NCBI GenBank assembly: GCA_013202715.1
Contig: JABMRF010000040.1
Location: 4,376-68,375 of the forward strand
Length of the DNA: 64,000 bases
Reading direction: 5' to 3'
Origin: Candidatus Kuenenbacteria bacterium
Lineage (GTDB): Bacteria > Patescibacteriota > Patescibacteriia > UBA11705 > JABHMO01
This document shows, one piece after another, positions 1 to 56,108 of this stretch; within the stretch, counting starts at the first letter, position 1, and each line of letters starts with the position of its first letter. The notes under the pieces were generated by a model, which saw only the letters and a list, made by a program, of their open reading frames with translations, was not told the DNA's origin and did no database searches. The position numbers and the translations under genes were made by a program.

Positions 1-1213
1 CCTGAGCGCTCAGCTCGGAAAACTTCTGCTCAAGCGAATTGCCCTGAACGGTCGAATCCTTGCTACCGACATTGGAAAACTCATTGTAGAGCTCTCCGAG
101 GGTTTCGACATGAATGATCCGGTACGGATCTTCATTCGGCAGTGGGTTTTTGTCAAAGTCACCGCTCTTGATCAGCACATCCGTGGTGCTCTCGATCACT
201 TCCACGAGCATTTCATTTGACACTTCATTTGGCGCAGATACGCCGAGCCACTGCAGGCAGTTGTCCGAAAGCGTCTGCCACTTCACGCCCTGAACCATTT
301 TTTCCACTTGGGCCTTGGTCAGACCGGTCTCCTTGACCAGCTCCTGGACCAATTCCACCGGGTTGTCCCGGTAGTACTTCAGTGAGCGGAAATAATTGGA
401 CAGGTACTTTTTCGTAAGCGCTTGATTTTCGTTGTACCACTTGATATTCACAACCAGGATATCAACGATATAGCGCTCAGTCTGCTCAGTTCCCAGAATT
501 TTGACGATACCTGGAGTTGAAAGCGCCCTCGAAACCTCAGGTTCCCAGAGAACTGCAACATCCACGGTGCCAGCCAAAAGCTTTTTCAGCGCATCTTCGG
601 ACCCGTCAGTTTCTACGCGAAACCTACCCGGAGCCGGAAGAAGTTCCGGTACATTGAAGTGATCCTTGGCCAACTTCAGCAAGTGATGACTTGGCGAATA
701 CGGAGTAAATCCGACCACCACGTCTTTGCCCTGGAAATCATTGAAGCTTTTGCCAACTTTTTCCAGAGCAACAATTGCATCTCCGCCCTTCGACTCATCA
801 ATGACCATGAAGATGAGGCCAGGAAAATCGTGCACAGCGGCATTGAGAACATACGAATCCACGGTCGCGACGACCATGTCGAATTCTCCGTCTGCCAGCT
901 TTTGCATTCGCACTTTGTAGTCAAGCTCTTCCACGACAGTGATCTTGCAACCAGAATTCTTCATTTTCTTTCTCTGAACATCAGAGAAGAGAATGTAATA
1001 TCCCGGCCAGGGATCCACTGCCATGACGATTTCGTCCGTTATATCTTTCGCCGCACTTGTATTTACCTTCTCCTGCTCTTCGGCAGCTTCTTCTGCCTGC
1101 GCTGCCAGCTCTTCCTGCTCAGTAGTATGATCAGAGAACAGCCTATAGGCACCAAAAGCAAGGAGCAAGACAACGACAATCGCGCCTAATGCAATCCCTT
1201 GGCGTTTGCTCAT
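1..1213 (-). CDS. membrane-anchored periplasmic substrate-binding protein, NMT1/SsuA-like (ABC-type nitrate/sulfonate/bicarbonate family); N-terminus in window, C-terminus beyond window start
   Basis: ATG at 1213 preceded by AGGAGG 7 nt upstream; manual translation MSKRQGIALGAIVVVLLLAFGAYRL (TM anchor) then ...AVDPWPGYYILF...GGDAIVALEKV... SBP-like motifs; open to position 1 (not in ORF track because there is no stop inside the window). Confidence 0.6.
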   Translation of the reverse strand, partial: MSKRQGIALGAIVVVLLLAFGAYRLFSDHTTEQEELAAQAEEAAEEQEKVNTSAAKDITDEIVMAVDPWPGYYILFSDVQRKKMKNSGCKITVVEELDYKVRMQKLADGEFDMVVATVDSYVLNAAVHDFPGLIFMVIDESKGGDAIVALEKVGKSFNDFQGKDVVVGFTPYSPSHHLLKLAKDHFNVPELLPAPGRFRVETDGSEDALKKLLAGTVDVAVLWEPEVSRALSTPGIVKILGTEQTERYIVDILVVNIKWYNENQALTKKYLSNYFRSLKYYRDNPVELVQELVKETGLTKAQVEKMVQGVKWQTLSDNCLQWLGVSAPNEVSNEMLVEVIESTTDVLIKSGDFDKNPLPNEDPYRIIHVETLGELYNEFSNVGSKDSTVQGNSLEQKFSELSAQ

Positions 1214-1281
1214 CCGTACCTCCTTTGTTTTTGAGCGGTTAAAAAAGGGGCAAGAGCAATTGTCCTGCCCCCTTGATGTAC

Positions 1282-2088
1282 CTATTCCTCGAAATCCATG
1301 ACTTGGAAATCTTCGGATTCAGCCAAAACGCCCTTCAAGGCGCTTGCGAGCTCAGCCGGGTCGCCAGCTTCACGATAAACCAGGTCTTCCCGATTCAGAG
1401 TGTGCTGACCACCAATACAGAATCCAATCGTGTAGACCACAATCGGGGTATTGTCGGCAATGAATGAGACATGGGTGGCAAGTGGACCTACATGGTCTGC
1501 AGCACCATCGGTAACGATGACCATCGTGTACTCACCATAACCAAGCTGTCTTTCAGCCTGCGCCGTCAGTTCAGCATAGGCGCCGGCAACAGCCTCAGTC
1601 AGAGGCGTACCTCCCTCCGGGGTCATGCTGTTTGCGTGGTCCAAAAACATTTGCCTGTTTCTGGTTCCCAAAGGAACCAATACTGAATACTTGTCGTTAG
1701 TGAAAACAGGGAACTTTATCAAGCCAAGATTGGCGTCATCCGGAACGTGCTTCACAAATTCCGCCAAGGCGACCTTGCCCGCATCGGACTTGGTATTTCC
1801 TCCAGAACATTTCGACTGCTCCATACTGCCGGAATTGTCCATGACCACGATGTAATTCTTGGTCAGGATGTTTTCCGCAACGTTGTCATCGGCAAGTCTG
1901 GGTGGCCAGACGAATTCCACGTCTTCCGCGGCTGACTCATCTCCACCGGCCCGCTCTACAGCGGCCTGCTTCTTCAGCTGATGCTCCTTGGCCCCGGGAA
2001 TCTTCTCCGGAACTGGATCCTTGCAACCGAGTGCGAAGAAAAAAATGAATACTGCAAAAATTGTGATGATCTTTTTCATGGTATTCAC
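1282..2088 (-). CDS. von Willebrand factor A (vWA) domain lipoprotein
   Basis: signal peptide plus lipobox FFALGC; MIDAS motif VVMDNSGSM (DxSxS); GAGGTGA RBS. Confidence 0.7.
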   Translation of the reverse strand: MNTMKKIITIFAVFIFFFALGCKDPVPEKIPGAKEHQLKKQAAVERAGGDESAAEDVEFVWPPRLADDNVAENILTKNYIVVMDNSGSMEQSKCSGGNTKSDAGKVALAEFVKHVPDDANLGLIKFPVFTNDKYSVLVPLGTRNRQMFLDHANSMTPEGGTPLTEAVAGAYAELTAQAERQLGYGEYTMVIVTDGAADHVGPLATHVSFIADNTPIVVYTIGFCIGGQHTLNREDLVYREAGDPAELASALKGVLAESEDFQVMDFEE

Positions 2089-2094
2089 CTCTCC

Positions 2095-3810
2095 CTACAG
2101 CAGTTCGAATTCAGAAGCTTCGGTTTCCACCTGAATGATCCTGAACTCGACCTTCATGTTGCTGAGCCACTCCTGCTCGCTCTTCGGAGCGCAGGGATGC
2201 GCACCGCACATGCCGCCGGCCGACTTCTCAAAGCCGTGGCCAACCACAGTGAACTGCGACTTGTCGAGCGTAATCCCCTTGGATGCTGCGTAGGCAACAA
2301 TGCTGTTGCGTACCGCATTTCCACGAGTCACACTCAGGTTTCTTGCGCCCTGCCGAATCTGCTTCAGCTTGGATGCCGGAGCACCGGCCTTCTTGGCCTT
2401 CAGGTAACCGAGCGGATCCGAGTGGCCTTCGACCACCATCACCGCGCCACCGAACGTTGACATCACATCGATTGCTTTGTCATATTCGGAAGCATACATG
2501 TTTGCCGTGAAATCGTTCTTGTTCGACTTGAAGAAAATCTTCAGCGTCGGAAAAATCTGCCCTGAAGACAGAGTTCCCTGACGCTGCTTTTGCGTTACGA
2601 CCGCAGCCAGCTTTTTCTCGTCATACTTCGGAGACTCGGCATGGTACTGCAGCTTTCCGCCGGAACGCATCACGGCATAGTCCCACTCAGCGTGCATCAG
2701 CGGGTAGGTCTTGTTCATCAGACCGAGCTCGGTAAACGCGGTCTGGATTTCGGCATTGACGTTCTGAAAGCTCCTCGCCTCGCTGGACTTGGTGAAAAAG
2801 GTTTCACTGTAAGCCAGCATGGCCGGGGTGCAGTCGAAGTACATGCCCTCAGAGTCGGCGAACGCCGCCGGATCCTCGATGATGTACTTGGCAAAAAATT
2901 TCACCGTTGCATTGTAAGTTTTCTTGTCCTTGTCCTTTCCATCGAAAACCTTGGCCATTGCTTCCTGCGCCTGAATGACGCCCTTGGCAAGCTCGAACAT
3001 CGCTGCCTTGTGAGCATTGAAATAATCGGACCGTACGACAAAGACATCGAAGATGACCTTGTCACCCGACTTGGTAGTCATCAGGATACGCGCACCCTTG
3101 CGAGTGCATTCCTGCATTTTGCACACCGTATCGGTGCCACCACCGGCCGCGCGAAGCGCGTCGGGGATGATCATGAAGGCCACATCGATCGACTTGTCCT
3201 TCTCGAATGCATCTGCCGGCGAATTTGTTCCGTACAGGTTGTCCTGCCAGACAAGAGTAACATCCTTGAATGAGAGGCCGACCGTTTTCAGAACTCGCCA
3301 CAGGAAATACAGGTGCGGACCATAGGCCTGAATGGCAATCCTCTTGCCATTCAGGTCTGCCGCGGTTTTGATACCTTCACGTACGACAATTGCGTCACCG
3401 CCCGTCGAACGGGTCAGGAGACCGGCAATCACCGGCTGAGTTCGCGGATCCTTGGCCATGATCGGCAGAGCCGCATTGACCATTCCGAGAGTTCCACGGA
3501 AGGTCGGGTTCTTGCCGGACATGTAGTCGTTCAGCATCTGCTGCGGATTGTTCTGCAGCTTGATGTTGAAACACAGGCCCAGCTTGTCGAAAATCGACCC
3601 CTTTGCGGTTCGCAGAGCATTGCCGTTACCGAAGGTAAAGGCATACTCCCCGCCCCAGGAAATCACGTGCAGGTCAATGCAACTGTTGTCAGTCACATTG
3701 CCCACCGGCGAATCCTTGAACGGCTTGAGCATCTGAGCGTTGGCAACGCCAGACCACATGAAACAAACTGCGAAAACGACTACGAGAATCTTGGCGGTGA
3801 AAGTCCTCAT
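2095..3810 (-). CDS. secreted NMT1/SsuA-like substrate-binding domain fused to C-terminal OmpA-like peptidoglycan-binding domain
   Basis: signal peptide ...GVANAQ; GGDAIVVREGI motif shared with the CDS at 1-1213; C-terminal VVEGHSDPLGYL...NLSVTRGNAVRNSIVAY resembles OmpA/MotB C-domain; AGGAGG RBS. Confidence 0.65.
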   Translation of the reverse strand: MRTFTAKILVVVFAVCFMWSGVANAQMLKPFKDSPVGNVTDNSCIDLHVISWGGEYAFTFGNGNALRTAKGSIFDKLGLCFNIKLQNNPQQMLNDYMSGKNPTFRGTLGMVNAALPIMAKDPRTQPVIAGLLTRSTGGDAIVVREGIKTAADLNGKRIAIQAYGPHLYFLWRVLKTVGLSFKDVTLVWQDNLYGTNSPADAFEKDKSIDVAFMIIPDALRAAGGGTDTVCKMQECTRKGARILMTTKSGDKVIFDVFVVRSDYFNAHKAAMFELAKGVIQAQEAMAKVFDGKDKDKKTYNATVKFFAKYIIEDPAAFADSEGMYFDCTPAMLAYSETFFTKSSEARSFQNVNAEIQTAFTELGLMNKTYPLMHAEWDYAVMRSGGKLQYHAESPKYDEKKLAAVVTQKQRQGTLSSGQIFPTLKIFFKSNKNDFTANMYASEYDKAIDVMSTFGGAVMVVEGHSDPLGYLKAKKAGAPASKLKQIRQGARNLSVTRGNAVRNSIVAYAASKGITLDKSQFTVVGHGFEKSAGGMCGAHPCAPKSEQEWLSNMKVEFRIIQVETEASEFELL

Positions 3811-4081
3811 TTTTTCCTCCTAAAGGATTGAGTTAATGGACCACCGTACTACGGAACAGGACACCGAAAAAATAACTATTAAAAAAAAGAAACAGCAAAC
3901 TTAATCTGCTCTTTTTCCTCCTTCCATATACAAATTGTCAAAAAACACAAATGAAACAATCTTAATACAAATTTAATATTTTGTCAAGTTTTTTATGTAA
4001 CTTTTTGCAAAAAAAAGCAAGCCAATTTTTCTTGACTTAATTTACTACACATAACAACACAAATACTATTTTTACGCAAGT

Positions 4082-4117
4082 AAAAAAGAACATTGAGTTC
4101 AATGTTCTTTTTTTTGA
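4082..4117. terminator. bidirectional rho-independent terminator
   Basis: A-run, 11-bp stem aagaacattga/tcaatgttctt, T8 run. Confidence 0.7.
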
Positions 4118-4119
4118 AA

Positions 4120-5532
4120 TTACCGTTGGAACGGCCGGCAAACCTTTGCTTTCGCGCCATAGAAACTCAATCTAAACCTCTGGACAACCTTTCTTCCAGT
4201 TCCGCCAAAGGCGTCAGGCATATTCCCAAGATCGACCTTCTCTCCCATCCTGTCTGCTACCATATTTTCCTGTAACCAAAGTTTGTATTGTTCTGCTCTG
4301 CTCAACTTGTCACTTTCAAACCTTTCAAATACTCCATTAATCACACCTTGGATTGCTCCACTGATACGATCATCCAGAGCAGTCATCGTTTGGCCAATCT
4401 TGCCGGGAACACGTCCCAGCATAACCATCACAATCATGATTCCCAGAACTGCCAGAAGAGGAGAAAGGACCCACAGTAAAGCGCTGAGCATCCACCAAAG
4501 CTCTCCAGCCAAGACCAGCTTGAACAGATAGTACGCACCTACCAAAAATACGACGACACTCAAAACTTCGATTGGTGCAACACGGAGATATTTATCAGCC
4601 TCACCTTCTTTTTTACCTCGTTTCCAAAGCAAAAATTCAGGAGTACTGTCCAAGCAAACACTCCACTCTTTTTCATCTCGCTCATGCATAAAACCAAGAT
4701 ACATTTCTCTGAGCACAGGTCGCGGTCGAAAACCGCAAAACGCTGTTGCAATACTGGCCAGCAAGACATAGAGCGAGTGGAATGTGCCACCAATCAAATA
4801 GACAATGATCAAGTACCCCAGCCCCACAAACGGCTTCAGGGAATAAGCGAGCATCTTCCTCTGGCGATACACGCACTCATCGCGCGGATTTCCTGGATGC
4901 AACCAGTTTGCCCAGTCCCAAAGACGACTGGCAAACTTCGTCTTTGGCCTCTGGGCAAAAAGCTCCGTTGGCACTTCAAATTCCATCACCTTGCATGCCA
5001 GTGCGCGACCATCAAAATCGGACAAATCGCCTTCCTCAAGATTTGAAAATGAAATAGAATTTGAGCTACGTGAAAAATGATCATCACGCAGGAGATTCTC
5101 CATAAAACGTTTCGAACATCTCTTTCCATCCAGCGCAACAACTGCCAACCGGTGGTAGCCGGGTGAAAATACCTGCATGAAATGAACGACTTGCTTCAGG
5201 TCATAGAGGCTTCGCCGACCCATTGTCATTGAATGATAAACATTTTCTGTTTCGTCCTTCGTTTGTTCAATGACCAAAATATGAGTCGGAGTGTTGTCCT
5301 CATCCATCAGCCACTGCTCATCAAACCCAACCTTGATAGGAACGGTGGCGCTGTCCATCTCATTGGTACCGCCATTGAGCACAACTTTCATAGCTGAAAG
5401 CGCCACCTCACGCCGCAACTCTTCTTCCTGCCTTTCACGTTCTTCCTGCGCTTCACGTTCTTCCTGCGCTTCACGCTCCACACGCTCATTTTCCAATTGC
5501 TCAGCTGATTTCTTGGTTTTTTTCTTTGACAT
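4120..5532 (-). CDS. hypothetical protein: acidic repeat-containing N-terminal domain plus C-terminal multi-TM region
   Basis: long ORF; GGAGGAG RBS before second ATG (MSKKKTKK); 18-nt tandem DNA repeat encoding REAQEE x3; several hydrophobic helices; GC higher than genome. Confidence 0.55.
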   Translation of the reverse strand: MSKKKTKKSAEQLENERVEREAQEEREAQEERERQEEELRREVALSAMKVVLNGGTNEMDSATVPIKVGFDEQWLMDEDNTPTHILVIEQTKDETENVYHSMTMGRRSLYDLKQVVHFMQVFSPGYHRLAVVALDGKRCSKRFMENLLRDDHFSRSSNSISFSNLEEGDLSDFDGRALACKVMEFEVPTELFAQRPKTKFASRLWDWANWLHPGNPRDECVYRQRKMLAYSLKPFVGLGYLIIVYLIGGTFHSLYVLLASIATAFCGFRPRPVLREMYLGFMHERDEKEWSVCLDSTPEFLLWKRGKKEGEADKYLRVAPIEVLSVVVFLVGAYYLFKLVLAGELWWMLSALLWVLSPLLAVLGIMIVMVMLGRVPGKIGQTMTALDDRISGAIQGVINGVFERFESDKLSRAEQYKLWLQENMVADRMGEKVDLGNMPDAFGGTGRKVVQRFRLSFYGAKAKVCRPFQR

Positions 5533-5750
5533 TTGCTCCTCCATGTTGAGCGAAAAAGTTTAACGAAGTCAACCCAATACTTATCTAATTGTAAGGTTCA
5601 GAACTAACATATCATGATAACAAACTTTTTTCAATTTGTCAACCTTCGAGAACCCTTCGATAAACTCAGGACAGGCCTCAGGTTGACACAAAAAATACTT
5701 ATTTTACGCAAAAAGAAAGGATTTCACTCCCCTCTTTTTATATAATTTGC

Positions 5751-7604
5751 TTATTCTAAAATAGCTTTAATCCTTCTCACACCTGCTGAGCTGGATTCTT
5801 CTTTTTTGATTCGGAACTTACCAAGCTCTCCAGTTTTTTGGGCATGCGGTCCGCCACACATTTCACAAGACACGTTTCCAATTGTGAAAACTTTTGCAAC
5901 GTGACCATACTTGTCTTCAAACAATCCAATTGCTCCTTTTTTCTTCGCATCATCAACTGCCATTTCCGCACAGCCAACTTCAAGATCATCTTTGATCCAA
6001 CCATTAACTAATTCTTCAACTTCTTTTTTTTGTTCGTCAGTCATTTTATCTAGATGTGTAAAATCAAATCGCAATCGGTCAGCGGTAATATTGCTACCCT
6101 TTTGCAGTGCATGAGGGCCAAGAACTTTTTGTAATGCGGCCTGGAGTAAGTGAGTTGCTGTGTGAAGTTTACAAGTTTCTTCCGATGCGTCAGCCAGTCC
6201 GCCTTTGAATCTTTGACCAGCGCCTTCTCGCGAAAGAGCCTGATGTTTTTCAAACTCAGCATCAAATTCTTTTTTGTCAAATTTAATTCCTTTTTCTTCT
6301 GCCAACTCTTCGGTCATTTCATATGGAAAACCATAAGTTGAAAACAAATCAAACGCTTCAGTTCCGGAAATATTATTGTCCTTGGACATTTTTTTGAACT
6401 CACGCAATCCTTTTTCCAGAGTTGTGGCAAATTTTTCTTCTTCTTTTGTTAATTGTTTCAAAATAAAATCTTTATTCTTCTTGAGTTCAGGATAAGTGTC
6501 CTGCATTATTTTAATAACAACTTCGGCAACCTTGTGAGTAAACACGCCTTCAATTCCAATTTGCTTGCCGTGCCTGATTGCTCTTCTAATTAAACGTCGC
6601 AAAATATATCCCTGGTCAACATTTGACGGTTCAATCCCCTTTTCATCACCAAGAATAAAAGTGGCAGCGCGAACGTGATCTACTATTACTCGAATTGATT
6701 TTTTTTCTTTTTCATAATTTGGATCATCTTTTTTTCCGTAAATGTCTGTATTGTCTACTCCTTCTTGACCAAGATATTTATATTTTCGGAGCATGTTAAC
6801 TTCTGCCACAATCGGTTCAATGTGCGGGCAATGATAATTATCAGGAAAGTCATTCAAAACTGAAACTGTTCTTTCCAATCCCATACCCGTATCCACGTTC
6901 CTCTGCTTCGCTTTTACATATTCATATTCTACTTTATCTGATTGGCTCTTGACTTTTGACTCTTGACTCTTGACTTTATTATATTCCATAAATACGTCGT
7001 TCCAAATCTCAACGTATTTACCACAACTGCAACTTGGCTGGCAGTCTTTGCCGCAAGCTTTTTTATCGGAAATATAAAACATTTCTGAGTCCGGTCCGCA
7101 TGGTCCTGTTTTTCCAGCCGGGCCCCACCAGTTTTCTTTTTTATTATATTTATAAATACGATCCTCGGGCATGCCAAGAGATTTCCAAGTATTGTAACTT
7201 TCTTCGTCAAAGGGAGCATCGTCGTCACCTTTAAAAACGGTCACAGCCAATCTGTCCAAAGGAATATCCAAAACATTTGTTAAAAATTCATAGCTCATTT
7301 CAATTGCTTCTTTCTTCCAGTAGTCGCCAAGTGACCAATTGCCCAGCATTTCAAAACAAGTAAAATGCCATTGATCTCCGACATCATCAATATCGCCAGT
7401 TCGAATACATTTTTGGAAATCAACCAATCGCGTTCCGGCTGGATGCTTTTCGCCCAATAAATATGGGACAAGAGGATGCATTCCGGCAGTTGTAAAAAGA
7501 CAGGTTGGATCATTTTCTGGAATCAAAGAAGCAGAAGGGATTATGGCGTGGCCCTTGTCTTTGAAAAAATTTAGGAATTTTTCACGAAGTTCGTGTGCGT
7601 GCAT
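5751..7604 (-). CDS. alaS: alanyl-tRNA synthetase (short form with catalytic and editing domains, no C-Ala domain)
   Basis: N-terminal class II AlaRS motifs (FTTAGMHPLVPY, WHFTCFEML), editing HxxxH...CGGPH; 617 aa. Confidence 0.85.
   Translation of the reverse strand: MHAHELREKFLNFFKDKGHAIIPSASLIPENDPTCLFTTAGMHPLVPYLLGEKHPAGTRLVDFQKCIRTGDIDDVGDQWHFTCFEMLGNWSLGDYWKKEAIEMSYEFLTNVLDIPLDRLAVTVFKGDDDAPFDEESYNTWKSLGMPEDRIYKYNKKENWWGPAGKTGPCGPDSEMFYISDKKACGKDCQPSCSCGKYVEIWNDVFMEYNKVKSQESKVKSQSDKVEYEYVKAKQRNVDTGMGLERTVSVLNDFPDNYHCPHIEPIVAEVNMLRKYKYLGQEGVDNTDIYGKKDDPNYEKEKKSIRVIVDHVRAATFILGDEKGIEPSNVDQGYILRRLIRRAIRHGKQIGIEGVFTHKVAEVVIKIMQDTYPELKKNKDFILKQLTKEEEKFATTLEKGLREFKKMSKDNNISGTEAFDLFSTYGFPYEMTEELAEEKGIKFDKKEFDAEFEKHQALSREGAGQRFKGGLADASEETCKLHTATHLLQAALQKVLGPHALQKGSNITADRLRFDFTHLDKMTDEQKKEVEELVNGWIKDDLEVGCAEMAVDDAKKKGAIGLFEDKYGHVAKVFTIGNVSCEMCGGPHAQKTGELGKFRIKKEESSSAGVRRIKAILE
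6946..6976. repeat. AGTCNNN heptamer tandem array inside alaS (in-frame, encodes KSQESKVKSQ-like insertion)
   Basis: ctcttgacttttgactcttgactcttgactt seen directly. Confidence 0.8.
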
Positions 7605-7611
7605 AGAGTTA

Positions 7612-7688
7612 AGTCTTGAGTCTAGAGTCTAGAGTCAATAGTCGGTAAAATAACTCTAGACTTTTGACTCTTGACTTTTGACTTGTAG
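7612..7688. repeat. two inverted arrays of AGTCNNN/TCTAGAC-type heptamers upstream of alaS
   Basis: agtcttgagtctagagtctagagtcaatagtc ... ctctagacttttgactcttgacttttgacttg. Confidence 0.8.
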
Positions 7689-8869: not shown

Positions 8870-9160
8870 TTACAATTCAGCAATCAATTCATTGACCCTG
8901 CCGAGCGAATCGTAAAACTTAATGTACCTGGAAATTTCTAGCGTTGATGCAGATTGCTCAATTGCATTTTTCAATGCACCTTTTTCTTCGACAGTCAGAT
9001 CGCCAATCATCTCCTTGAAAAGGTCGACGAGAAAAACCAATTTGAGCGCGTTGTCCCTGTAGTAGGTAACGCCCTTCATGGTATCATTTTCTGCCAATGC
9101 TTCACACAAATCCTGAAATTTTTCAAAAAGTGCTTTCAGTACTGGATTCAACGTTGCCAT
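8870..9160 (-). CDS. hypothetical small protein (96 aa)
   Basis: ORF with GAGGT upstream; no recognisable domain. Confidence 0.45.
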   Translation of the reverse strand: MATLNPVLKALFEKFQDLCEALAENDTMKGVTYYRDNALKLVFLVDLFKEMIGDLTVEEKGALKNAIEQSASTLEISRYIKFYDSLGRVNELIAEL

Positions 9161-9243
9161 TTTTACCTCTCAATGTTATATGCTTCTTGCCAAGCGCAAG
9201 ATATTCATATTACTTTACAAAATAAATTGAAAGTTGTCAATAG

Positions 9244-9285
9244 AAAAACCGCGCTTGTCAAAACAAGAGCGGTTTTTTCTTTTTA
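9244..9285. terminator. bidirectional terminator downstream of mnmA
   Basis: aaaaaccgcgcttgt-caaaa-caagagcggtttttt. Confidence 0.6.
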
Positions 9286-9293
9286 AAGTATAA

Positions 9294-10400
9294 TTATTCA
9301 ATTTCACCGCCCCCTAAACATTCATCTCCATTATAAAAAACACAATACTGGCCGGAGGTAATGGCTCGCTGGGGTTTTGGAAATTTCACCAGAAATTTGT
9401 TTGAAGAACGATTGTCAGGCGAACTTCCGGAAGTTCGCCTGACAATCTGACAATTTACATTTTCAGATCGATATCGGATTCGGCATTCGCATTTAAATGG
9501 CAATGTTGGAGCCGTGCCGGAAATCCAATTAACTTTTTTAACTATTAATTCTTTGGCTAAAATATCATCTTCGTTTTTACTCACCCAGAGGGTATTATTT
9601 TTTTTATCCAATCGAGAAACATACCACGGACCATCGGCAAGGCCAATCCCCTTTCTTTGCCCAATTGTGTACATTGGTAAACCGTCATGCTGGCCAAGGA
9701 TTTTACTGTCAGGCGCGACGCCTTCTCGAATAGGCCCTTTTTCAAATTTGATATATCTTTTCAAAAATTCACCCACCTTTCCATCCGCTACAAAACAAAT
9801 TTCCTGTGATTCTTTTTTGCTGGCAGTTGACAGTCCATGTTTCTTGGCCAATTTTCGAACTTGTTCTTTTGTATAATTTCCAACTGGGAACATAACATGA
9901 GCCAGATCCTTTTGCTTGATCTGATGAAGGAAATATGACTGGTCTTTGTTTTTGTCCCGTCCCACGCGTAGGGAACGGTCGCGACCGTTCCCTACGCGAG
10001 CGAAATGCCCGGTCGCGACAAAATCAACGCCCATTGGTTTTAATTTTTTCCACAACTCACCAAATTTGATATATTGATTGCAACGCACACATGGATTTGG
10101 TGTACGACCACACTCATATTCATTAACAAAATTATCTACAATTTTTTCCTTGAACGGAGCCTTCATATCAATCACATAAAACGGAATTCCGAGCTTATTG
10201 CAAACCCGGCGGGCATCTTCTGCAGATTCCAGCGAACAGCAAATGTTTTCACGAATTTTGCCCTTGATATTCTCATTCCAGAATTTCATAAAAACACCAA
10301 TGACTTCATAGCCTTGTTCTTTTAATAATACTGCGGCAACTGACGAATCCACTCCGCCGGACATGCCGACGGCCACCTTTAATTGTTTGTTTTTATTCAT
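9294..10400 (-). CDS. mnmA: tRNA-specific 2-thiouridylase MnmA
   Basis: PP-loop VGMSGGVDSS, ...NPCVRCN..., ...KDQSYFL; TATAAT 6 nt upstream of ATG and no SD. Confidence 0.9.
   Translation of the reverse strand: MNKNKQLKVAVGMSGGVDSSVAAVLLKEQGYEVIGVFMKFWNENIKGKIRENICCSLESAEDARRVCNKLGIPFYVIDMKAPFKEKIVDNFVNEYECGRTPNPCVRCNQYIKFGELWKKLKPMGVDFVATGHFARVGNGRDRSLRVGRDKNKDQSYFLHQIKQKDLAHVMFPVGNYTKEQVRKLAKKHGLSTASKKESQEICFVADGKVGEFLKRYIKFEKGPIREGVAPDSKILGQHDGLPMYTIGQRKGIGLADGPWYVSRLDKKNNTLWVSKNEDDILAKELIVKKVNWISGTAPTLPFKCECRIRYRSENVNCQIVRRTSGSSPDNRSSNKFLVKFPKPQRAITSGQYCVFYNGDECLGGGEIE
9965..9998. repeat. 34-bp perfect GC-rich palindrome inside the mnmA coding sequence
   Basis: cgcgtagggaacggtcg|cgaccgttccctacgcg; reverse complement identical. 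Confidence 0.9.
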
Positions 10401-10450
10401 AAATTCATTATATCAAAAAAAACGCCTTTTGCGTCTTTTTTTATATCATA

Positions 10451-10816
10451 CTATCCAGCTTTCTTCAAGGTCACCATCACCTCCGGCACATATTTGTTAT
10501 CTTTGTCATCAACAACTTCAACTTTATTATTTTTCATCAGCTCATTCCACATTAGATCTGACAAAACTTGCTTGGTGTCTTTTATATCCATTTTCAAATC
10601 ATCCAAGTCGTTGAATTCAGAGGCATAATCTCCTCGAATCGCGACTTCAATTTGTTTTTTCTTAGCTTTCAAGGAATTCATTTCATCTAAAATATCCTGA
10701 TATTCTTTTGTCTGGTCATAAGCTTCCTTGACAACTACTTTGATTTCTTTTTGTTTAGCTTTTGCATCCTGGATTTCCAAGTGCAAATCTGTAATTCTTT
10801 GTGCATTGTCGGACAT
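10451..10816 (-). CDS. hypothetical coiled-coil protein (121 aa)
   Basis: charged, heptad-like composition. Confidence 0.5.
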   Translation of the reverse strand: MSDNAQRITDLHLEIQDAKAKQKEIKVVVKEAYDQTKEYQDILDEMNSLKAKKKQIEVAIRGDYASEFNDLDDLKMDIKDTKQVLSDLMWNELMKNNKVEVVDDKDNKYVPEVMVTLKKAG

Positions 10817-10923
10817 ATATAATAGGGCGAAAGAAGGCGAAAGAAGATAACCTTGCCTTCATAACTTTATTATTAAATACAAAATTAAGTATAACAAACA
10901 TTCCCTTAATTAACAATTGTGGA

Positions 10924-10951
10924 TAAATAAAAACCACCGTCAATCCGGTGG
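10924..10951 (-). terminator. rho-independent terminator
   Basis: ccaccg-tcaatc-cggtgg followed by T-run on minus strand. Confidence 0.6.
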
Positions 10952-10959
10952 AGTCTTTG

Positions 10960-11253
10960 TTATTTTTCAATTCTAGCTTCTAATACATCGAGATGACTCA
11001 ATACTTCCTGTCTCAGCGCTTGAAGAGCATGAAACAGTTGAAATATTGGAACGTCCTGATCAGCATCTTGGTCAGCACTTCGATGTAATGCAACCATAAT
11101 AGAGATTTTTTCCTTTTTAGCATAAGGAACAATCTGTGTTTTTAACCATTCGCGCAAAGCATCTAGATCATTAACAAACGGGCAAGAAAAACCAGCTGCT
11201 ATGAGTTCTCTAGCTACTACATTCAGAAATCTGTCTGAAGTCATTTTTGCCAT
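10960..11253 (-). CDS. hypothetical small protein (97 aa)
   Basis: GGGGGA RBS-like sequence upstream of ATG. Confidence 0.5.
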   Translation of the reverse strand: MAKMTSDRFLNVVARELIAAGFSCPFVNDLDALREWLKTQIVPYAKKEKISIMVALHRSADQDADQDVPIFQLFHALQALRQEVLSHLDVLEARIEK

Positions 11254-11280
11254 TTATTCCCCCTAGACAAAACATTGCAA

Positions 11281-11314
11281 CCTCAAGTGAAAAATATAAA
11301 AAAAGAACATGCAG
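11281..11314 (-). terminator. rho-independent terminator
   Basis: gaacatg-cagcta-catgttc with T-run on minus strand. Confidence 0.6.
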
Positions 11315-11350
11315 CTACATGTTCCTCACATTACCATACAACACTTTTAT

Positions 11351-12583
11351 TTACAAATATTTTTTCAGTAAATTATAAACTTCCTCATAATTCATCCGGA
11401 TCTTGGCGCCCATTACCAAAGCGATTAATTCCCTGGTGGAACCCTTTGCCTGCATGACAAGATTGTAGCCTGCCTCATCTGTCCAGCCGGTTTTGCTGCC
11501 AGTCACATAGAGATCGCGATCGAGAAGCTTTATGCTGGTATTTTTCACCCAGTAAACAACATCTTTGTTGACCGGTACAACTTTGTACCACTTTGTGGTT
11601 GTGGCCTTGAGAATATCAATATTTTTAAATGCTCTTTTGGAAATAGCGGCCATTTCAAAAGCGGTGGAAACATTATTTTCATTCAATCCGGTGGGTTCAA
11701 CAAAGTGAGTGTTTGTTAGTCCAAATCCTTTTACTTTTTCATTCATCTTCTGAACAAACTCATCCAGAGTCAATCCGCTAGCGCGAACCAAAGAGTGAGT
11801 GGTATTATTTTTCGAGCCAACCAAGGTCGCATAAAATAAATCTTTGACTGTAATCTGATCGCCTTCTTTTGCCCAAAGTGAGGCGCCACCAACATAGTCG
11901 GACTTTTGCATGGTAATGATCTTGTCCCAACCAGGATTGTGATCAAGAAAAACCAAAACTGAAACTAATTTTGTCATGCTGGCAATCGGTCGAACATCAT
12001 TCATGTTCTTTTGGAAAATGATACTGCCGGAATTTTTATCAACCACTATTGCGGACTGCGCTGTCAAAGCCTCCGGATCATTTTCCAGAACAGCCACTTT
12101 CGCGTATGGAAAAATTGTTTTCGCTCGAATTAGTTTATTTTCATAATCTATTTCAGAAGGAAGCTCTCGCCATTTTTGCTGATGATTGTCGTAAAAATAA
12201 ATTGCTTTGTCCAGCTCATTATCACTTTCATAAGCCATGGAAATCAGCTGAGCACGCTCCATAAAGCCGGGGTTTTCTTTTCTAATGTCAAAAGTATAAA
12301 AACCTGAAACTGCTCTTTTCGTTTCAGGTAAATCATCAAAATTATCATTCCTGGAAATTTTTACTAATAATTTCCCTTGGTGAAAATTTGGAAAAATCGG
12401 CACCCAAAGTTGTTTGTCAACACTTTTTACTGTAAAACCGCGCTCTAAAGTTTGCTCATCAAAATCAATTATAACAGTATCAAACGTTTTTGCGTCTGCT
12501 GCTTGATATAGTGCGAAAAATAACACAAAAATCGAAACTAAAATTAGCCAACGTTTGAGATCCATACAATTAACAATTGACAT
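11351..12583 (-). CDS. D-alanyl-D-alanine carboxypeptidase (PBP5/6 family, peptidase S11) with N-terminal extension
   Basis: SxxK (ASMTK), SxN (GSKNN), KTG (GSKTGWT) motifs. Confidence 0.8.
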   Translation of the reverse strand: MSIVNCMDLKRWLILVSIFVLFFALYQAADAKTFDTVIIDFDEQTLERGFTVKSVDKQLWVPIFPNFHQGKLLVKISRNDNFDDLPETKRAVSGFYTFDIRKENPGFMERAQLISMAYESDNELDKAIYFYDNHQQKWRELPSEIDYENKLIRAKTIFPYAKVAVLENDPEALTAQSAIVVDKNSGSIIFQKNMNDVRPIASMTKLVSVLVFLDHNPGWDKIITMQKSDYVGGASLWAKEGDQITVKDLFYATLVGSKNNTTHSLVRASGLTLDEFVQKMNEKVKGFGLTNTHFVEPTGLNENNVSTAFEMAAISKRAFKNIDILKATTTKWYKVVPVNKDVVYWVKNTSIKLLDRDLYVTGSKTGWTDEAGYNLVMQAKGSTRELIALVMGAKIRMNYEEVYNLLKKYL

Positions 12584-12624
12584 TTAACATTTGACCTTTG
12601 ACGTGTCAGGTGTCAAATGTTTTT

Positions 12625-13122
12625 TTAGAGCTTTGTAATTCCAAGCGGTGTTACCTTATAACATCCCTTGCTCTTGAATTCATCAATTCCTTTTTCTAAA
12701 TGAAAATACACTTCAAAATCATTTTCATCAAGTTTTGTAAACGTGTAATTACAGCCTGAATCATAACACGCTTTTGCGCTGGTACAGGCTACATTCATAA
12801 CATCAGGATCATTCACCTGAGCGAGTTCTGGTAAAATTTTAAGCAGTTCTGAATTCTCATTTTTACTACATAAACTTACAAATGTCAAATCACAATATGC
12901 CCGTTCATAACTGCCAGTTTCATTTTTTACTACCTGAAGGGCGTCTTTGATTGTATTCACATCAGTAAGTCTTTTTGCATCTCGGAGCTGTTTTTGTTTT
13001 GAATTCAAAGAGAGAACCAAGCCGGTCAAGATAAGCCCTATGACTCCTACGACAATTAATATTTCAACTAAAGTAAAGCCATCGCGCTTAGTACCAAAGC
13101 GGGCTCTTGTGTTTTTGAACAT
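12625..13122 (-). CDS. type IV prepilin/pseudopilin
   Basis: class III signal KRDGFTLVEILIVVGVIGLI. Confidence 0.8.
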   Translation of the reverse strand: MFKNTRARFGTKRDGFTLVEILIVVGVIGLILTGLVLSLNSKQKQLRDAKRLTDVNTIKDALQVVKNETGSYERAYCDLTFVSLCSKNENSELLKILPELAQVNDPDVMNVACTSAKACYDSGCNYTFTKLDENDFEVYFHLEKGIDEFKSKGCYKVTPLGITKL

Positions 13123-13149
13123 ACTAGATTTTGTTATTGAAAATTCTAA

Positions 13150-13608
13150 TTAATCCTTGAAAATTCCTTTTTCAGTTAAAGCATAACATCCTTCTTCCTT
13201 GAACGTACCTGCCCCCTTTTCAAGATAAAACTGAACCATATATGCATCAGCAGTTAAAGCACGAACAGCATATTCACAACCCTGAACACAACTCGTACTA
13301 CAAAGTCCTGCTGTTCCAAGAGGATCAATAACAGTTTTAATGCTGGTTAAAACTTCTTCCAGCTCACCGCCAACACAATCTTTTATCGCTTTTCCAGCAG
13401 CACAATTTGCATCAGGTTTGTATGTGCCAAGCTCCTGATTGACCATGCCCATTGCTTTTTGCACGGCAGAAATGTCATTGATACGTTTTGTGTCACGTCC
13501 TTTTTCACGAATGTTTCCCAAGGAAACAACTGCTAGAGCTGACAATAAACCAATAATGGCAATTACCACAAGTAGCTCAATTAAAGTAAACCCTTTTTGT
13601 TTTCTCAT
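13150..13608 (-). CDS. type IV prepilin
   Basis: KGFTLIELLVVIAIIGLL prepilin leader. Confidence 0.8.
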   Translation of the reverse strand: MRKQKGFTLIELLVVIAIIGLLSALAVVSLGNIREKGRDTKRINDISAVQKAMGMVNQELGTYKPDANCAAGKAIKDCVGGELEEVLTSIKTVIDPLGTAGLCSTSCVQGCEYAVRALTADAYMVQFYLEKGAGTFKEEGCYALTEKGIFKD

Positions 13609-13744
13609 AATTTTTTTAAGTTAATTTCCGCCATAGGCGGATCAGCCTATGGCTGAAATTTTTTATATTTCTAAACAGGGCTATATAGGGCTAGACAAGA
13701 GGACAAGATAGAGATTATCCCGTTGACTTGTTTAGCCATGTTTC

Positions 13745-13770
13745 GCCTTATTAATTATATCACATATTCG
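13745..13770 (-). promoter_or_regulatory. extended -10 promoter (TGtGATATAAT) overlapping the pilC stop codon, with a structured roughly 130-nt leader before the pilin gene
   Basis: minus-strand atatgTGATATAATtaa; identical TGTGATATAAT reappears at 53785. Confidence 0.4.
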
Positions 13771-14965
13771 ATGAAATTTCATACATTGGTAAAATAATTG
13801 AAATAATCATTGCGCCAACAGCTACACCAAGAATAATCATAATAAATGGTTCCAATAATGCCATTAAGTTTGCAATCAAATTATTTGCTTCGCGGGTATA
13901 GAACTCACTAACCTTTTCAAGTACCTCCTTTACTTTTCCTGTATTCTCGCCAGTTTCTAGCATTTGAGAAAGCATTTTCGGAGCATATTTACTTTTACTG
14001 AAAACTAACCCCAGTTCTCCACCGTCTTTTACAACGTTCACCGTTTCCAAAATTAAATCTTCATAAACTGTATTGCTCATCATCCCAGAGCTTATTTCCA
14101 AAGCCTCTACCATATCCACGCCACCAATAAGTAATGTTCTAAAACTTCGAGAGAATCTGATTACTGCGGTATAATTAATTAATTTTCCAAAAACCGGTAA
14201 TTTTAAGGCCACTTTGTCAATTACTCTTTTTCCCGCCGACGATTCATTAACTTTATAAACAACAAAGCCAAAAACTGCAACCACAATAATTAACACCCAC
14301 CAATATCCAATCAGAAAATCACTCGTTCCAATCAACATTCGAGTTGTAAAGGGTAGTTTCGCTCCAGTTTGAGTTAGCATTTCCGTTAATTTCGGTACCA
14401 CGAAAATCATCATCAAGACACCCACCACTACCAACCCGCAAATCACAAATACCGGATAAATCATGGCTCCTTTTATTTTTGCCCGTAAATCATAATCTTT
14501 TTCCAGCTGATCTGCCAAATATACTAAAACTTCCTGAAGGCGTCCGGAAACTTCCCCTGATTTGATTATATTAATAAAAAAGCCGTCAAAAACTTTTGGA
14601 AAATGTGCCAGAGCTTCAGAAAACTTAACCCCACCCTCCACTTCACTGGCAACTTCAGCAATGGTTTTTTTTAATTTTGGGTTATTTGTCTGCCCTACTG
14701 CGTCTTTCAATGCCTCAACTACTGGGACTTCAGCAGAAATTAAAATAGAGAGTTGGCGAGAAAAAATCACCAAGTCTTTAATCTTTACCCGGTCAAAACT
14801 AATTTCTAGAGCAGCTAGGCCGGTTTTCTTTTGTTCCAATGAAAGGACAATATATCCTTTGTCTTCAAGAATATCAACCGCCAAACTTTCACTTTCTGCC
14901 TCAACCACTCCCTCCAACATTTCATCGTTTTCGGTTGTTTTCGCGCGATAATTATATAAACTCAT
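13760..14965 (-). CDS. pilC: type IV pilus assembly platform protein PilC (GspF family)
   Basis: polytopic membrane protein with two T2SSF-like repeats. Confidence 0.85.
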   Translation of the reverse strand: MSLYNYRAKTTENDEMLEGVVEAESESLAVDILEDKGYIVLSLEQKKTGLAALEISFDRVKIKDLVIFSRQLSILISAEVPVVEALKDAVGQTNNPKLKKTIAEVASEVEGGVKFSEALAHFPKVFDGFFINIIKSGEVSGRLQEVLVYLADQLEKDYDLRAKIKGAMIYPVFVICGLVVVGVLMMIFVVPKLTEMLTQTGAKLPFTTRMLIGTSDFLIGYWWVLIIVVAVFGFVVYKVNESSAGKRVIDKVALKLPVFGKLINYTAVIRFSRSFRTLLIGGVDMVEALEISSGMMSNTVYEDLILETVNVVKDGGELGLVFSKSKYAPKMLSQMLETGENTGKVKEVLEKVSEFYTREANNLIANLMALLEPFIMIILGVAVGAMIISIILPMYEISSNM

Positions 14966-14971
14966 ATTGCT

Positions 14972-16732
14972 TTACTCTTGCTCCTCAACTTCTTTACTGA
15001 CTCTGAATATTTCTTCAAGCGAAGTAAATCCTTGTAGTGATTTGATAATTCCATCCTGTAATAGACTAATCATCCCGATTCTTTTTAGCTCTTCGAGAAC
15101 TTCAGGTTTTTTAAACCCGTTGGAAATTATAATTCTCATTTTTTCTGTAATTGGCAACACTTCGGAAATTACAATTCGTCCACTGTAGCCTGTGTTCTTA
15201 CATATTGCACAACCTTTTCCCCGATATGCTTTTAATTGACCTGTTAAATCAATTTCTTTGGGTAATTTCTTCGGATCGACTTTTTGCAATTCTCTTTTTA
15301 CCTTTTCTGCAACGTCATTTGGTAAATCGTAACTTTCTTTACACTTGGAACAAATACGACGACCCAGGCGTTGTGCAATTATTAAATTCAAGGTTGAAGC
15401 AAGGAGAAAAGGCTCCACCTTCATATCCATCAAACGTGGCACAGCACCAATTGAATCATTGGTATGCAAAGTTGAAAATAATAAATGTCCGGTGAGTGCA
15501 GCATGCACGCCCATCTCGCCAGTTTCATGATCACGAATCTCTCCGACCATAATAATATCCGGATCCTGTCTCATCAAAGCGCGAAGTCCGGCTGCAAAAG
15601 TAAACTTAACTTCAGGCCTGACCTGAGCCTGATTAATTCCAGGAATATTATATTCCACCGGGTCTTCCAGTGTGCTAATATTGATCCCTTCTTTGTTCAT
15701 GCTACTCAAAATTGAAAATAAAGTAGTAGACTTACCCGAACCTGTCGGCCCGGTAACTAAAATCATGCCGTAAGTCTGCTTCAACGCTGTGGCAATTACA
15801 TCTCTCAGCTCCTTGCTAAAGCCCAGTTGCTCAAGTGTCAAAGCTTTACTACCAGTATCTAAAATACGAATGGTGATTTTTTCTTTTCCCGCCAAAGGCA
15901 TCACTGAAATACGCAAATCATAATCTTGTTTTCCAATATGAATTTTTGATCTGCCATCCTGCGGAACCCGAGTTTCATCAATTTTTAAATTTGATAAAAC
16001 TTTAATCCTGGAAATTACTGAATCATGAATATAGGACGGTAATGTTAAAACTGTATTTAAAATGCCGTCTATTCGAAAACGAACCCGCGAACTTTTTTCA
16101 AAAGGTTCAATGTGAATATCGGAAGCCCGGCTTTCAACCCCGTGCTTGATAATCATGGAAACTATCTGAGCTACCGGCGCACTTTTGATAACCTCCTCAA
16201 TATTATCAGTAGAAATATCTTCTTCTAATTTTTTTTCTTCCTGATCTTTTTCAACCTCACCGAGAGCAGTTGCCACGTCGTCTCCAAAGGCGCCGTAACG
16301 CTTTAGTGCTTCTTGCCAGGCATATATTGAACAAAGATAATATTCAACTGAAAATCCTTTGCTGGAAGCCCAAAAATCAATTGCTTCTCGGGCATCATAA
16401 TCTTCCGGTTTAGCTATAGCAATCTTTAGTTTTTGGCCCTGTTGGTCAAAACAAATTGCACTGTGTTGCTCAGCTAAATTCAGGGGCATTATTTCCTGAA
16501 TATCCGGATTTACTTTGCGCTGCATCAAATTTTCATAAGGATAATTAAAAAACTCTGCCTCAAACTGAGCCAACTTTTCTGCATCAACAAATCCTCCTTT
16601 TATTAGGATGTCTCTTAGACTTTTCTCTTCGGAGCTCTTTAGGATATTTTTAACTTCCTCAACCTGCTTCTCTCTGAGTGCTCCCTTTTGTAACAAAAAG
16701 CCCAATAATTTTTTATGTTGTTCTTTTATCAT
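14972..16732 (-). CDS. pilB: type IV pilus assembly ATPase PilB (GspE family)
   Basis: Walker A GPTGSGKSTT, CxxC tetracysteine, GspE signature; ORF-track start at 16744 is TTG, ATG at 16732. Confidence 0.9.
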   Translation of the reverse strand: MIKEQHKKLLGFLLQKGALREKQVEEVKNILKSSEEKSLRDILIKGGFVDAEKLAQFEAEFFNYPYENLMQRKVNPDIQEIMPLNLAEQHSAICFDQQGQKLKIAIAKPEDYDAREAIDFWASSKGFSVEYYLCSIYAWQEALKRYGAFGDDVATALGEVEKDQEEKKLEEDISTDNIEEVIKSAPVAQIVSMIIKHGVESRASDIHIEPFEKSSRVRFRIDGILNTVLTLPSYIHDSVISRIKVLSNLKIDETRVPQDGRSKIHIGKQDYDLRISVMPLAGKEKITIRILDTGSKALTLEQLGFSKELRDVIATALKQTYGMILVTGPTGSGKSTTLFSILSSMNKEGINISTLEDPVEYNIPGINQAQVRPEVKFTFAAGLRALMRQDPDIIMVGEIRDHETGEMGVHAALTGHLLFSTLHTNDSIGAVPRLMDMKVEPFLLASTLNLIIAQRLGRRICSKCKESYDLPNDVAEKVKRELQKVDPKKLPKEIDLTGQLKAYRGKGCAICKNTGYSGRIVISEVLPITEKMRIIISNGFKKPEVLEELKRIGMISLLQDGIIKSLQGFTSLEEIFRVSKEVEEQE

Positions 16733-16767
16733 TGAATTATACAATTCATGGAAGAGATCGATAAGAC

Positions 16768-17091
16768 CTATTCCACTTCTTCAATATTTTCAAATGGATT
16801 TTCTTTAAATTCCTGTCCTTCTTCATTTATTACTAATGGCCAATCACCCACTTTTTCCAAGCCAAGAAACTGCTCATCTTCCAAAAGCGCTTGTTTTACT
16901 TTTTCAAACTCACTATTACTATCTGAATCAGAATCTAAATTTAGTAACTGAATAGGCCCCTCGTTATCAATATTTTCTTGAGGCTTGAAGTAAATTAAAT
17001 CAACTGCCATTAAAGCAGCTATAATTATGACAATTAATATTACAATAATAATTGAATTTCTAATTTGGTTACTCTTCATCTGATTCTTCAT
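16768..17091 (-). CDS. small membrane protein, pilus-operon associated
   Basis: N-terminal TM segment, acidic C-terminal half. Confidence 0.45.
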   Translation of the reverse strand: MKNQMKSNQIRNSIIIVILIVIIIAALMAVDLIYFKPQENIDNEGPIQLLNLDSDSDSNSEFEKVKQALLEDEQFLGLEKVGDWPLVINEEGQEFKENPFENIEEVE

Positions 17092-17755: not shown

Positions 17756-17758
17756 AAC

Positions 17759-55983: not shown

Positions 55984-56079
55984 AAATGAATACTGATGAT
56001 ACTGATATACTGATTAAGAGAAATTTGATTTAGGATAACAATAAATTACGTAAAATTAGCAAAAACCGTTACCAACCTA

Positions 56080-56108
56080 TTGACTTTTATTTAAATATAT
56101 GCTATAAT
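56080..56108 (+). promoter_or_regulatory. consensus promoter TTGACT-17-tgcTATAAT
   Basis: TTGACT 56080-56085, TATAAT 56103-56108 with TGn. Confidence 0.7.

Follow-up and report, generated by a model that had tools for sequence, protein, structure and literature searches.

Predicted wall-tethered solute-binding proteins, a vWA/MIDAS protein and TelA form a conserved, horizontally mobile cassette that reaches Candidatus Kuenenbacteria

The ATP-binding cassette (ABC) importers of the NitT/TauT type, TauABC, SsuABC and NrtABCD/CmpABCD, together with GimABC, provide the closest described counterparts of a locus in a genome of Candidatus Kuenenbacteria, a member of the Candidate Phyla Radiation (CPR). 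The locus opens a stretch of 64,000 nucleotides, called here the window (contig JABMRF010000040.1, positions 4,376 to 68,375). Its three leading genes encode two solute-binding protein (SBP) paralogs with OmpA-like domains, SBP-OmpA1 and SBP-OmpA2, and between them a von Willebrand factor A (vWA) protein with a metal-ion-dependent adhesion site (MIDAS). With the importers, the wider cassette to which these genes belong shares the SBP fold, a TauC/SsuC-like permease, an ATPase, a free SBP of the TIGR03427 type (SBP3) and a putative GimA-like site of aromatic and aspartate residues. To this set it adds two SBPs that are covalently joined to peptidoglycan-binding domains, together with a vWA protein of the periplasm, a transmembrane (TM) coiled-coil protein named X, and TelA, while a guanidine riboswitch and linked catabolic genes are absent from the loci searched.

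The added parts also have described counterparts. In Firmicutes, xpaC-telA (yaaN) pairs likewise encode a TelA family protein directly after a small, helical TM-hairpin protein; X, in contrast, has no XpaC match, and its pair with TelA forms part of a transporter/vWA cassette whose hosts are mostly diderm. OmpA-like anchors (Pal, YiaD, YfiB, MotB, the C-domain of Omp38) have the signature GH(S/T)D...N..LS..RA..V in common with the cassette SBPs, in which the partner is a complete solute-binding fold rather than a porin barrel, a lipid anchor or a stator plug. The OmpA domain of SBP-OmpA1 has two further peculiarities, an insertion of roughly 16 residues and a cysteine pair that is conserved. 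Ter/TelA-vWA systems (TerY/TerF, TerZABCDEF, TelA) also combine TelA with a MIDAS-type vWA protein in mobile contexts, including jumbo phages, but TerB/TerC/TerD partners are absent from the cassette flanks, the vWA protein is exported and the match to TerY is at domain level only. Cyanophages carry nutrient-uptake genes such as PstS, which resemble the present case as an SBP/ABC module on large phages, although the phages of the present case hold an entire envelope cassette of several genes rather than one SBP.

No curated entry for SBP-OmpA1, for X or for the cassette as a whole was found in Pfam, NCBIfam or PADLOC, and no description of the combination (TelA, vWA, OmpA, SBP; phage G) was found in the open-access full-text literature. 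A survey of jumbo phages does not mention OmpA or ABC transporters (PMC7824862). Each domain family is already known, and SBP/OmpA fusions are already named in public annotation. What appears to be undescribed is their combination in a mobile cassette that builds on an ABC importer by adding envelope tethering and a link to TelA.

A census of a one-genome-per-species contig collection with tblastn confirmation yielded 376 stretches, and 84 loci fetched from these were annotated by phmmer and tabulated. The vWA gene directly follows SBP-OmpA1 in all 84 loci. The order SBP-OmpA1, vWA, SBP-OmpA2, X, TelA, SBP3, permease, ATPase occurs in 14 of them, and an alternative order, in which permease and ATPase precede SBP-OmpA1, vWA, SBP-OmpA2, X, TelA and SBP3, occurs in 10. 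Among the variants, four loci lack TelA, four have ABC genes without a free SBP3, and two retain the trio only; the frequencies in Table 1 count only loci with enough flank to assess each component. This annotation agrees with the precomputed gene calls for Pleionea, Falkowbacteria and Desulfogranum japonicum, a cultured isolate that has the full set. The three window genes thus form the constant leading part of a conserved, horizontally mobile cassette of about 9 kb.

An ordinary multi-SBP ABC operon, with vWA and TelA as coincidental neighbours, is therefore hardly credible. Many ABC operons do hold more than one SBP gene, and public annotation plainly reads 'ABC transporter substrate-binding protein', yet synteny already contradicts this explanation: one gene order is shared by Gammaproteobacteria, CPR bacteria, plasmids and phages, the two additional SBPs are in every case fused to OmpA-like domains, and vWA is never missing. 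An earlier interpretation of the window from its letters alone, the sequence-only reading, had held that a wall-tethered SBP beside a MIDAS-containing lipoprotein is not a standard importer layout, and the invariant pairing in the tabulated loci upholds it. That reading also named a canonical permease/ATPase context lacking vWA in relatives as the finding that would speak against it. A NitT/TauT-type permease/ATPase does lie in the same operon in relatives (40 of 51 assessable loci), but vWA is never absent, so the original observation is not refuted.

The carriers span distant phyla. Gammaproteobacterial hosts include Hahella, Zooshikella, Thalassolituus, Pleionea, Arenicella, Methylococcaceae and others, while the Desulfobacterota contribute the cable bacteria Electronema and Electrothrix, Desulfogranum and Syntrophobacteraceae; Burkholderiales also carry the cassette. 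Among CPR bacteria it is found in Falkowbacteria, Sungbacteria, Parcubacteria and Saccharibacteria. Copies also appear in unexpected bins, namely a Bathyarchaeota metagenome-assembled genome (MAG; locus L046), Crocinitomicaceae (L048) and an 'Enterobacteriaceae' MAG (L053). The SBP-OmpA1 of these three loci clusters with gamma- or betaproteobacterial copies, a grouping that points to mis-binning or else to additional transfers.

In the 10-kb flanks of 81 loci, a single family besides the cassette recurs in more than 10 loci, a cluster of classical-clade AAA ATPases that adjoins the cassette in 22 of them (for example L012 8359-9837, L087 8342-9841 and L015 12556-14199). In three CPR genomes the AAA ATPase lies inside the cassette, between vWA and SBP-OmpA2. 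The cluster combines two different kinds, a proteobacterial form of about 490 aa and an ARC/Mpa-like CPR form; the AAA ATPase was consequently dropped as a core component and is regarded as accessory.

Further genes of the Kuenenbacteria cassette lie outside the window. Logan contig L001, 11,617 nt long, is 100% identical to window positions 1-7681 and adds 3,936 nt leftwards. On it SBP-OmpA2 is completed and followed by X, TelA and SBP3, which supports what the sequence-only reading had offered as one option, an acquired system with its remaining genes beyond the window start. The GC-rich composition persists to the end of this contig. Since X has a basic N-terminus and a TM hairpin, both of its ends are predicted to be cytoplasmic; it was dropped as an XpaC homologue for want of Pfam support, and the likeness is architectural only. 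TelA has no predicted TM segment. TIGR03427 is a putative urea-transporter family associated with urea/guanidine carboxylase. The score of SBP3 for it is marginal (336.8 bits against a curated cut-off of 333.9), its Pleionea counterpart reaches 510.9, and the OmpA-fused paralogs, at just 25-52 bits, are not members of the family. In relatives, the permease is a BPD_transp_1 protein of TauC/SsuC/NtrB-like type and the ATPase is a typical ABC protein; no copy of either occurs elsewhere in the 64-kb window.

Structure prediction and profile evidence define SBP-OmpA1 as a binding fold joined to a putative peptidoglycan-binding domain. A public protein of Candidatus Kuenenbacteria, named 'ABC transporter substrate-binding protein', is 100% identical to it. 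The periplasmic binding fold occupies residues of about 40-390 and the OmpA-like domain about 420-560, followed by a tail of the form E-x-E-x-x-x-F-x-P-L. Pfam NMT1 matches the protein (E = 3.2e-5), NCBIfam matches of the SBP-like proteins in the window are of the SsuA/TauA/TIGR03427 type, and the family profile matches both TauA (6ssy, 7e-7) and the peptidoglycan-binding domain of Omp38 (3td3, 4.6e-4). An AlphaFold2 (AF2) model built from 111 sequences is compact and has two domains, with a predicted local distance difference test (pLDDT) score of 91.6 and a predicted template-modelling score (pTM) of 0.89. Foldseek returns TauA (2e-11), SsuA and Thi5 as the best PDB folds for its N-domain; the same search against viral structures gave nothing useful. 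Pfam, NCBIfam, the AF2 model and Foldseek thus all place the N-domain in the class II periplasmic binding fold of the NMT1/SsuA/TauA type. The Pfam OmpA family (PF00691) does not match the window's own copy, and it is precomputed for many homologues. The profile and the model nevertheless bear out the earlier description of this gene as an SBP-like domain with a C-terminal OmpA/MotB-type domain.

Conservation of SBP-OmpA1 is strong. Hundreds of full-length relatives of about 570 aa show 41-53% identity, and 48 positions are invariant in an alignment of 111 sequences (about 43% identity) that crosses phyla. The invariant N-domain residues include W52, R105-G-T107, S135, G138-D139, Q161, G164-P-H166, D217, D255, R260 and D262. 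In the OmpA domain, D465, R496 and the cysteine pair C535/C540 are invariant, as is the signature GHSDP...NLSxxRAxAV. Disorder is predicted for the final eight residues; even so, three of the tail positions (E562, E564 and F568) never vary and two more (P570 and L571) show conservation of at least 90%, which suggests that the tail is a candidate docking motif.

SBP-OmpA2, completed from L001 (6469-8064), is a protein of 531 aa with one N-terminal TM helix, an SBP domain and a C-terminal OmpA domain. The sequence-only reading had recognized the TM-anchored paralog and the GGDAIV motif common to both SBPs, and both observations stand. It was mistaken in assigning an OmpA-like domain to only one of them, because the second domain lies outside the window (Pfam OmpA, E = 6.6e-14, 52.5 bits against a gathering threshold of 27.2). 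Both SBP paralogs, not one, are thus predicted from sequence to be wall-tethered. NMT1 also matches SBP-OmpA2, whose best NCBIfam match is TIGR03427, and its conserved motifs comprise W-x-G-Y, DESKGGDA, LWEP and IVD together with a canonical OmpA signature. The Pfam searches that had been proposed find NMT1 in both SBPs, VWA_2/VWA in the protein between them and OmpA in SBP-OmpA2.

The middle protein is, as first described, a vWA/MIDAS lipoprotein. VWA_2 matches at E = 3.9e-10 (40.7 bits against a cut-off of 27), VWA matches too, the window's copy has the lipobox LGC, and the MIDAS motifs DxSGS (DNSGS here), GGTPL and VTDG are at least 95% conserved among 80 homologues. In the cassette at large the vWA protein is either a lipoprotein or secreted. 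Lipoproteins of the vWA type can be adhesins (PMC9946355), and in monoderm CPR hosts the proteins would sit at the cell surface. A surface sensing or adhesion complex had been suggested at the outset; in it the vWA lipoprotein would be a CglB-like adhesin, anchored by the SBP-OmpA proteins. Most carriers, however, are diderm Proteobacteria and Desulfobacterota, in which proteins with a signal peptide and a peptidoglycan-binding domain would be periplasmic and peptidoglycan-bound. A lipobox pattern is matched in only 36 of the 80 homologues, a low count due in part to uncertain open reading frame (ORF) starts, and tight operon linkage to an ABC importer and a cytoplasmic TelA would be unexpected of an adhesin. 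The adhesion complex is, for these reasons, improbable.

Table 1. Coordinates of the features in the window and in contig L001, with the share of assessable loci holding each counted cassette component
Feature	Position	Strand	Description	Loci with component
SBP-OmpA2, first 404 codons	window 1..1213	-	ORF runs off the left end of the window	71/74
vWA/MIDAS lipoprotein	window 1282..2088	-	268 aa; public gene call from 2079, 265 aa	
SBP-OmpA1	window 2095..3810	-	571 aa: signal peptide, NMT1/SsuA-type binding fold, OmpA-like domain, C-terminal tail	
X	after SBP-OmpA2 in L001		291 aa; basic N-terminus, TM hairpin, coiled-coil C-terminal half	63/70
TelA	L001 8994-10262 (outside window)		422 aa; PF05816, 1.1e-47, 163.3 bits vs gathering 30	52/65
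SBP3	after TelA in L001		401 aa; lipoprotein-like free SBP, TIGR03427 'putative urea ABC transporter substrate-binding protein'	36/51
ABC genes (permease or ATPase)				40/51
AT-rich intergenic region before cassette	window 3811..4082	-	sigma-70-like TTGACA-17-TAAGAT (3987-3959); GGAGG ribosome-binding site (3820-3816)	
Terminator-like hairpin	window 4083..4115	-	A-run, stem GAACATT/AATGTTC (7 bp), T-run; directly 3' of the stop of the 474-aa gene	
REAQEE membrane protein, neighbour	window 4120..5544	-	474 aa; unnamed metagenomic family; GC3 0.48	

Composition marks window positions 1-5550 as a GC-rich foreign island in the Kuenenbacteria genome. GC content in 1-kb bins is 0.49-0.53 over positions 1-4000 and 0.45 over 4001-5000, against 0.34-0.44 in most other bins. 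The excess is located at synonymous sites, since GC at third codon positions (GC3) is 0.69, 0.57 and 0.59 in the three island genes and 0.48 in the adjoining membrane-protein gene, compared with 0.353 +/- 0.033 in 21 other window genes. The compositional check for horizontal origin that the sequence-only reading had called for therefore supports an acquired island. Its claim of a GC-rich first 5.5 kb is likewise confirmed, with the correction that the background is about 0.39 and not 0.37 and that further peaks occur at 56-57 and 61-62 kb.

The rest of the window has ordinary cellular gene content, encoding alanyl-tRNA synthetase (AlaRS), MnmA, DnaK/DnaJ/GrpE/HrcA, LepA, MurJ, RecJ, PilB/C/M of the type IV pilus, DNA polymerase III delta', CysRS and a D-Ala-D-Ala carboxypeptidase. 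This content identifies the stretch as a bacterial (CPR) chromosome, and a mis-binned huge phage was ruled out on the same ground.

Signs of transfer recur elsewhere. In CPR loci the GC content of the cassette exceeds that of the flanks by 0.027-0.114, and the difference is small in most, though not all, non-CPR loci. The genes scpA and scpB are normally neighbours; in Falkowbacteria a cassette without TelA (L003 8890-19099) sits between them. In a neighbour-joining tree of SBP-OmpA1, which carries no support values, the CPR copies form two separate groups, one of Kuenenbacteria and Falkowbacteria and one of Saccharibacteria, Sungbacteria and Parcubacteria nested among Desulfobacterota-type sequences.

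Plasmids and phages also carry the cassette. Searches by tblastn place it on six Vibrio plasmids of 240-320 kb, where it is complete, and plasmid pSEA1 of Vibrio sp. 04Ya108 has its copy (NZ_LC081338.1 179653-188428) in the order ATPase, SBP-OmpA1, vWA, 'phosphate ABC transporter substrate-binding/OmpA family protein', hypothetical, 'toxic anion resistance protein', 'putative urea ABC transporter SBP', permease. In plasmid annotation the cassette proteins go under names that show no relation to one another: transporter, OmpA, VWA and 'toxic anion resistance'. Bacillus phage G has a reduced form (JN638751.1 171533-178618) with gp243 as permease, gp245 as ATPase, and gp249 and gp250 each combining NMT1 with OmpA. 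The 595-kb uncultured phage LR756511.1 has a near-complete form (locus 9905-18467) that encodes SBP-OmpA1, vWA, SBP-OmpA2, X, an unknown ORF of 277 aa, SBP3, permease and ATPase. Three IMG/VR contigs carry the cassette as well, and the copy on the 359-kb one (locus 8888-18874) is also near-complete, with vWA, X, SBP3, permease and ATPase. Collectively, these contexts show that the cassette is horizontally mobile.

The function we favour, though with confidence evenly divided between right and wrong, is that a wall-tethered assembly captures or senses a small cation, possibly a guanidinium-like one, and that this step is coupled both to import and to a membrane module with TelA. The two SBP paralogs would be held on peptidoglycan by their OmpA-like domains, with SBP-OmpA2 also anchored on the cytoplasmic membrane. 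Through its metal-ion site the vWA protein may bridge them, the acidic C-terminal tail of SBP-OmpA1 being the candidate contact. This wall-bound assembly would capture or sense a small cationic nitrogen compound of the guanidinium or urea type and hand the ligand, or a signal, on to SBP3, the free SBP, and to the ABC importer. Where SBP3 is absent the permease might be served directly, and the four loci that have ABC genes without a free SBP3 are compatible with such service by the tethered SBPs. On the cytoplasmic side, X may recruit TelA to the inner membrane face, by analogy with XpaC-TelA pairs, and the X-TelA module would then protect the membrane or regulate the system. In Firmicutes, xpaC-telA pairs act in envelope stress, and they affect both the architecture of phospholipids and resistance against antibiotics that target the envelope (PMC6811118, PMC12791056).

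The proposed ligand derives from a comparison with GimA, a NitT/TauT SBP whose KD for guanidine is 97 nM and whose binding residues are W59, W62, F205, D135 and D233 (PMC12704784). SBP3 has the conserved motifs SHYTGWEPW, GDxSNGND, TWNP and GEIIDxMVV, in which W-x-x-W, GND, TWNP and IxD fall at the GimA offsets within one residue, giving W, W, W, D and D. By motif, SBP-OmpA2 retains a GimA-like pattern. The SBP3 profile aligns to that of SBP-OmpA1 at a probability of 97%, and SBP-OmpA1 keeps both aspartates. These residues suggest that the putative ligand is small and cationic.

Several observations weigh against this capture-and-import function. At the ligand site, SBP3 was mapped onto GimA by offset only and with no alignment, and SBP-OmpA1 lacks the third aromatic residue. 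Genes for urea or guanidine catabolism (carboxylase, hydrolase) do not recur in the 10-kb flanks of 81 loci, and Rfam finds no riboswitch or other element, guanidine riboswitch included, in the window or upstream in 12 relatives. On the import side, 11 of 51 well-covered loci have no ABC genes nearby, with the trio alone in two. In Kuenenbacteria the sequence examined ends past SBP3 without a permease or ATPase, both of which are known from relatives, and a hairpin with a T-run lies 3' of SBP3 in L001. For the membrane module, X has no Pfam family, and none of 47 homologues scanned matches XpaC or any other specific Pfam family, the only signal being coiled-coil noise. The AF2 model of TelA, built from 11 sequences, is all-helical with very long helices but is poor (pLDDT 61). 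Foldseek of that model lists ClyA-family toxins (AhlC and others) at E >= 4e-3 and template-modelling scores <= 0.37, which is non-significant and serves as a lead only.

TelA also invites the main alternative explanation, in which the cassette is a Ter/TelA-type system for envelope protection or superinfection exclusion. The SBP domains would be sensors, vWA and X-TelA would remodel or strengthen the envelope against toxic compounds or superinfecting phages, and the ABC transporter would be only a frequent passenger. TelA is present in 52 of 65 loci, some loci are trio-only or lack ABC genes, an AAA ATPase whose nearest PADLOC model is IetA adjoins about a quarter of loci, and jumbo phages and megaplasmids carry the cassette. 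TelA and vWA proteins have been read as components of a sub-membrane barrier in jumbo phages (PMC7824862), and the phenotypes of Firmicutes mutants in TelA have to do with antibiotics that act on the cell envelope (PMC12791056). The surroundings and the other components speak differently. No TerB/C/D-like family recurs in the flanks of 81 loci, vWA is extracytoplasmic here, unlike TerY/TerF, and four loci keep the whole cassette without TelA. The ABC genes belong to the same operon in about 80% of loci, SBP3 falls in a curated transporter-SBP family, and SBP-OmpA1 is strongly conserved across phyla, which is unusual for fast-evolving conflict genes. PADLOC-DB 2.0 has no match for SBP-OmpA1, X, TelA or SBP3 and gives domain-level matches only, to TerY (E = 0.0015), to ZorB/MotB (3e-6) and, for the accessory AAA, to IetA. 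A known anti-phage defence system was rejected on this negative result for the core proteins, and a Ter/TelA-type protective system is itself unlikely, though far from fanciful.

Next to the cassette, the sequence-only reading had placed a membrane protein with REAQEE repeats behind its own terminator. The protein is indeed present with its repeats, which correspond to a tandem DNA repeat of 18 nt x 3 at 5422-5475 that is specific to this copy. It is not part of the system: none of the 83 other loci holds a homologue, and it was ruled out as a cassette component. Its unnamed family comprises 353 cluster representatives; the members have in common a conserved domain of some 230 aa at the N-terminus, a TM block, and the motif KAKVCKPF at the C-terminus, and no close relative was found in viral contigs. 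The gene may have arrived with the island, given its GC3. A terminator-like hairpin with a T-run is read from the sequence at the stated place; a consensus terminator scan, which needs at least three G-C pairs, does not list it, and its stem as read has two.

Some further features of the window deserve mention. A short-form alanyl-tRNA synthetase gene at 5751-7604 (minus strand, 617 aa, NF002436 842 bits) abuts the right border of the island. The two distant GC peaks, at 56000-57000 (0.49) and 61000-62000 (0.48), overlie ORFs at 56530-57300 and 61243-62223 that have no Pfam match, there is no Rfam match at these places either, and the translation of the first ORF appears non-genic.

These findings describe a family of loci that departs from textbook ABC import in its predicted covalent peptidoglycan tethering of duplicate solute-binding folds and in the periplasmic MIDAS protein that always goes with them. 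Cultured carriers exist, among them Desulfogranum japonicum DSM 18378, Hahella, Zooshikella, Thalassolituus, Pleionea, Vibrio with pSEA1-type plasmids and the cultured Bacillus phage G. GC-rich islands in minimal-genome CPR bacteria and carriage by giant phages point to a self-contained, transferable envelope function. It is possible, although we hold it only tentatively, that the cassette is an unrecognised envelope machine in which a peptidoglycan-anchored SBP pair with a MIDAS bridge is coupled to an ABC importer and TelA, is transferred as a unit, and would allow phages to re-wire host uptake or shut the envelope to competitors. A mechanism for TelA has been lacking for decades, and here the protein belongs to a conserved operon whose other products include a transporter and recognisable partners outside the cytoplasm. 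If true, the envelope-machine reading would give TelA its first defined molecular context.

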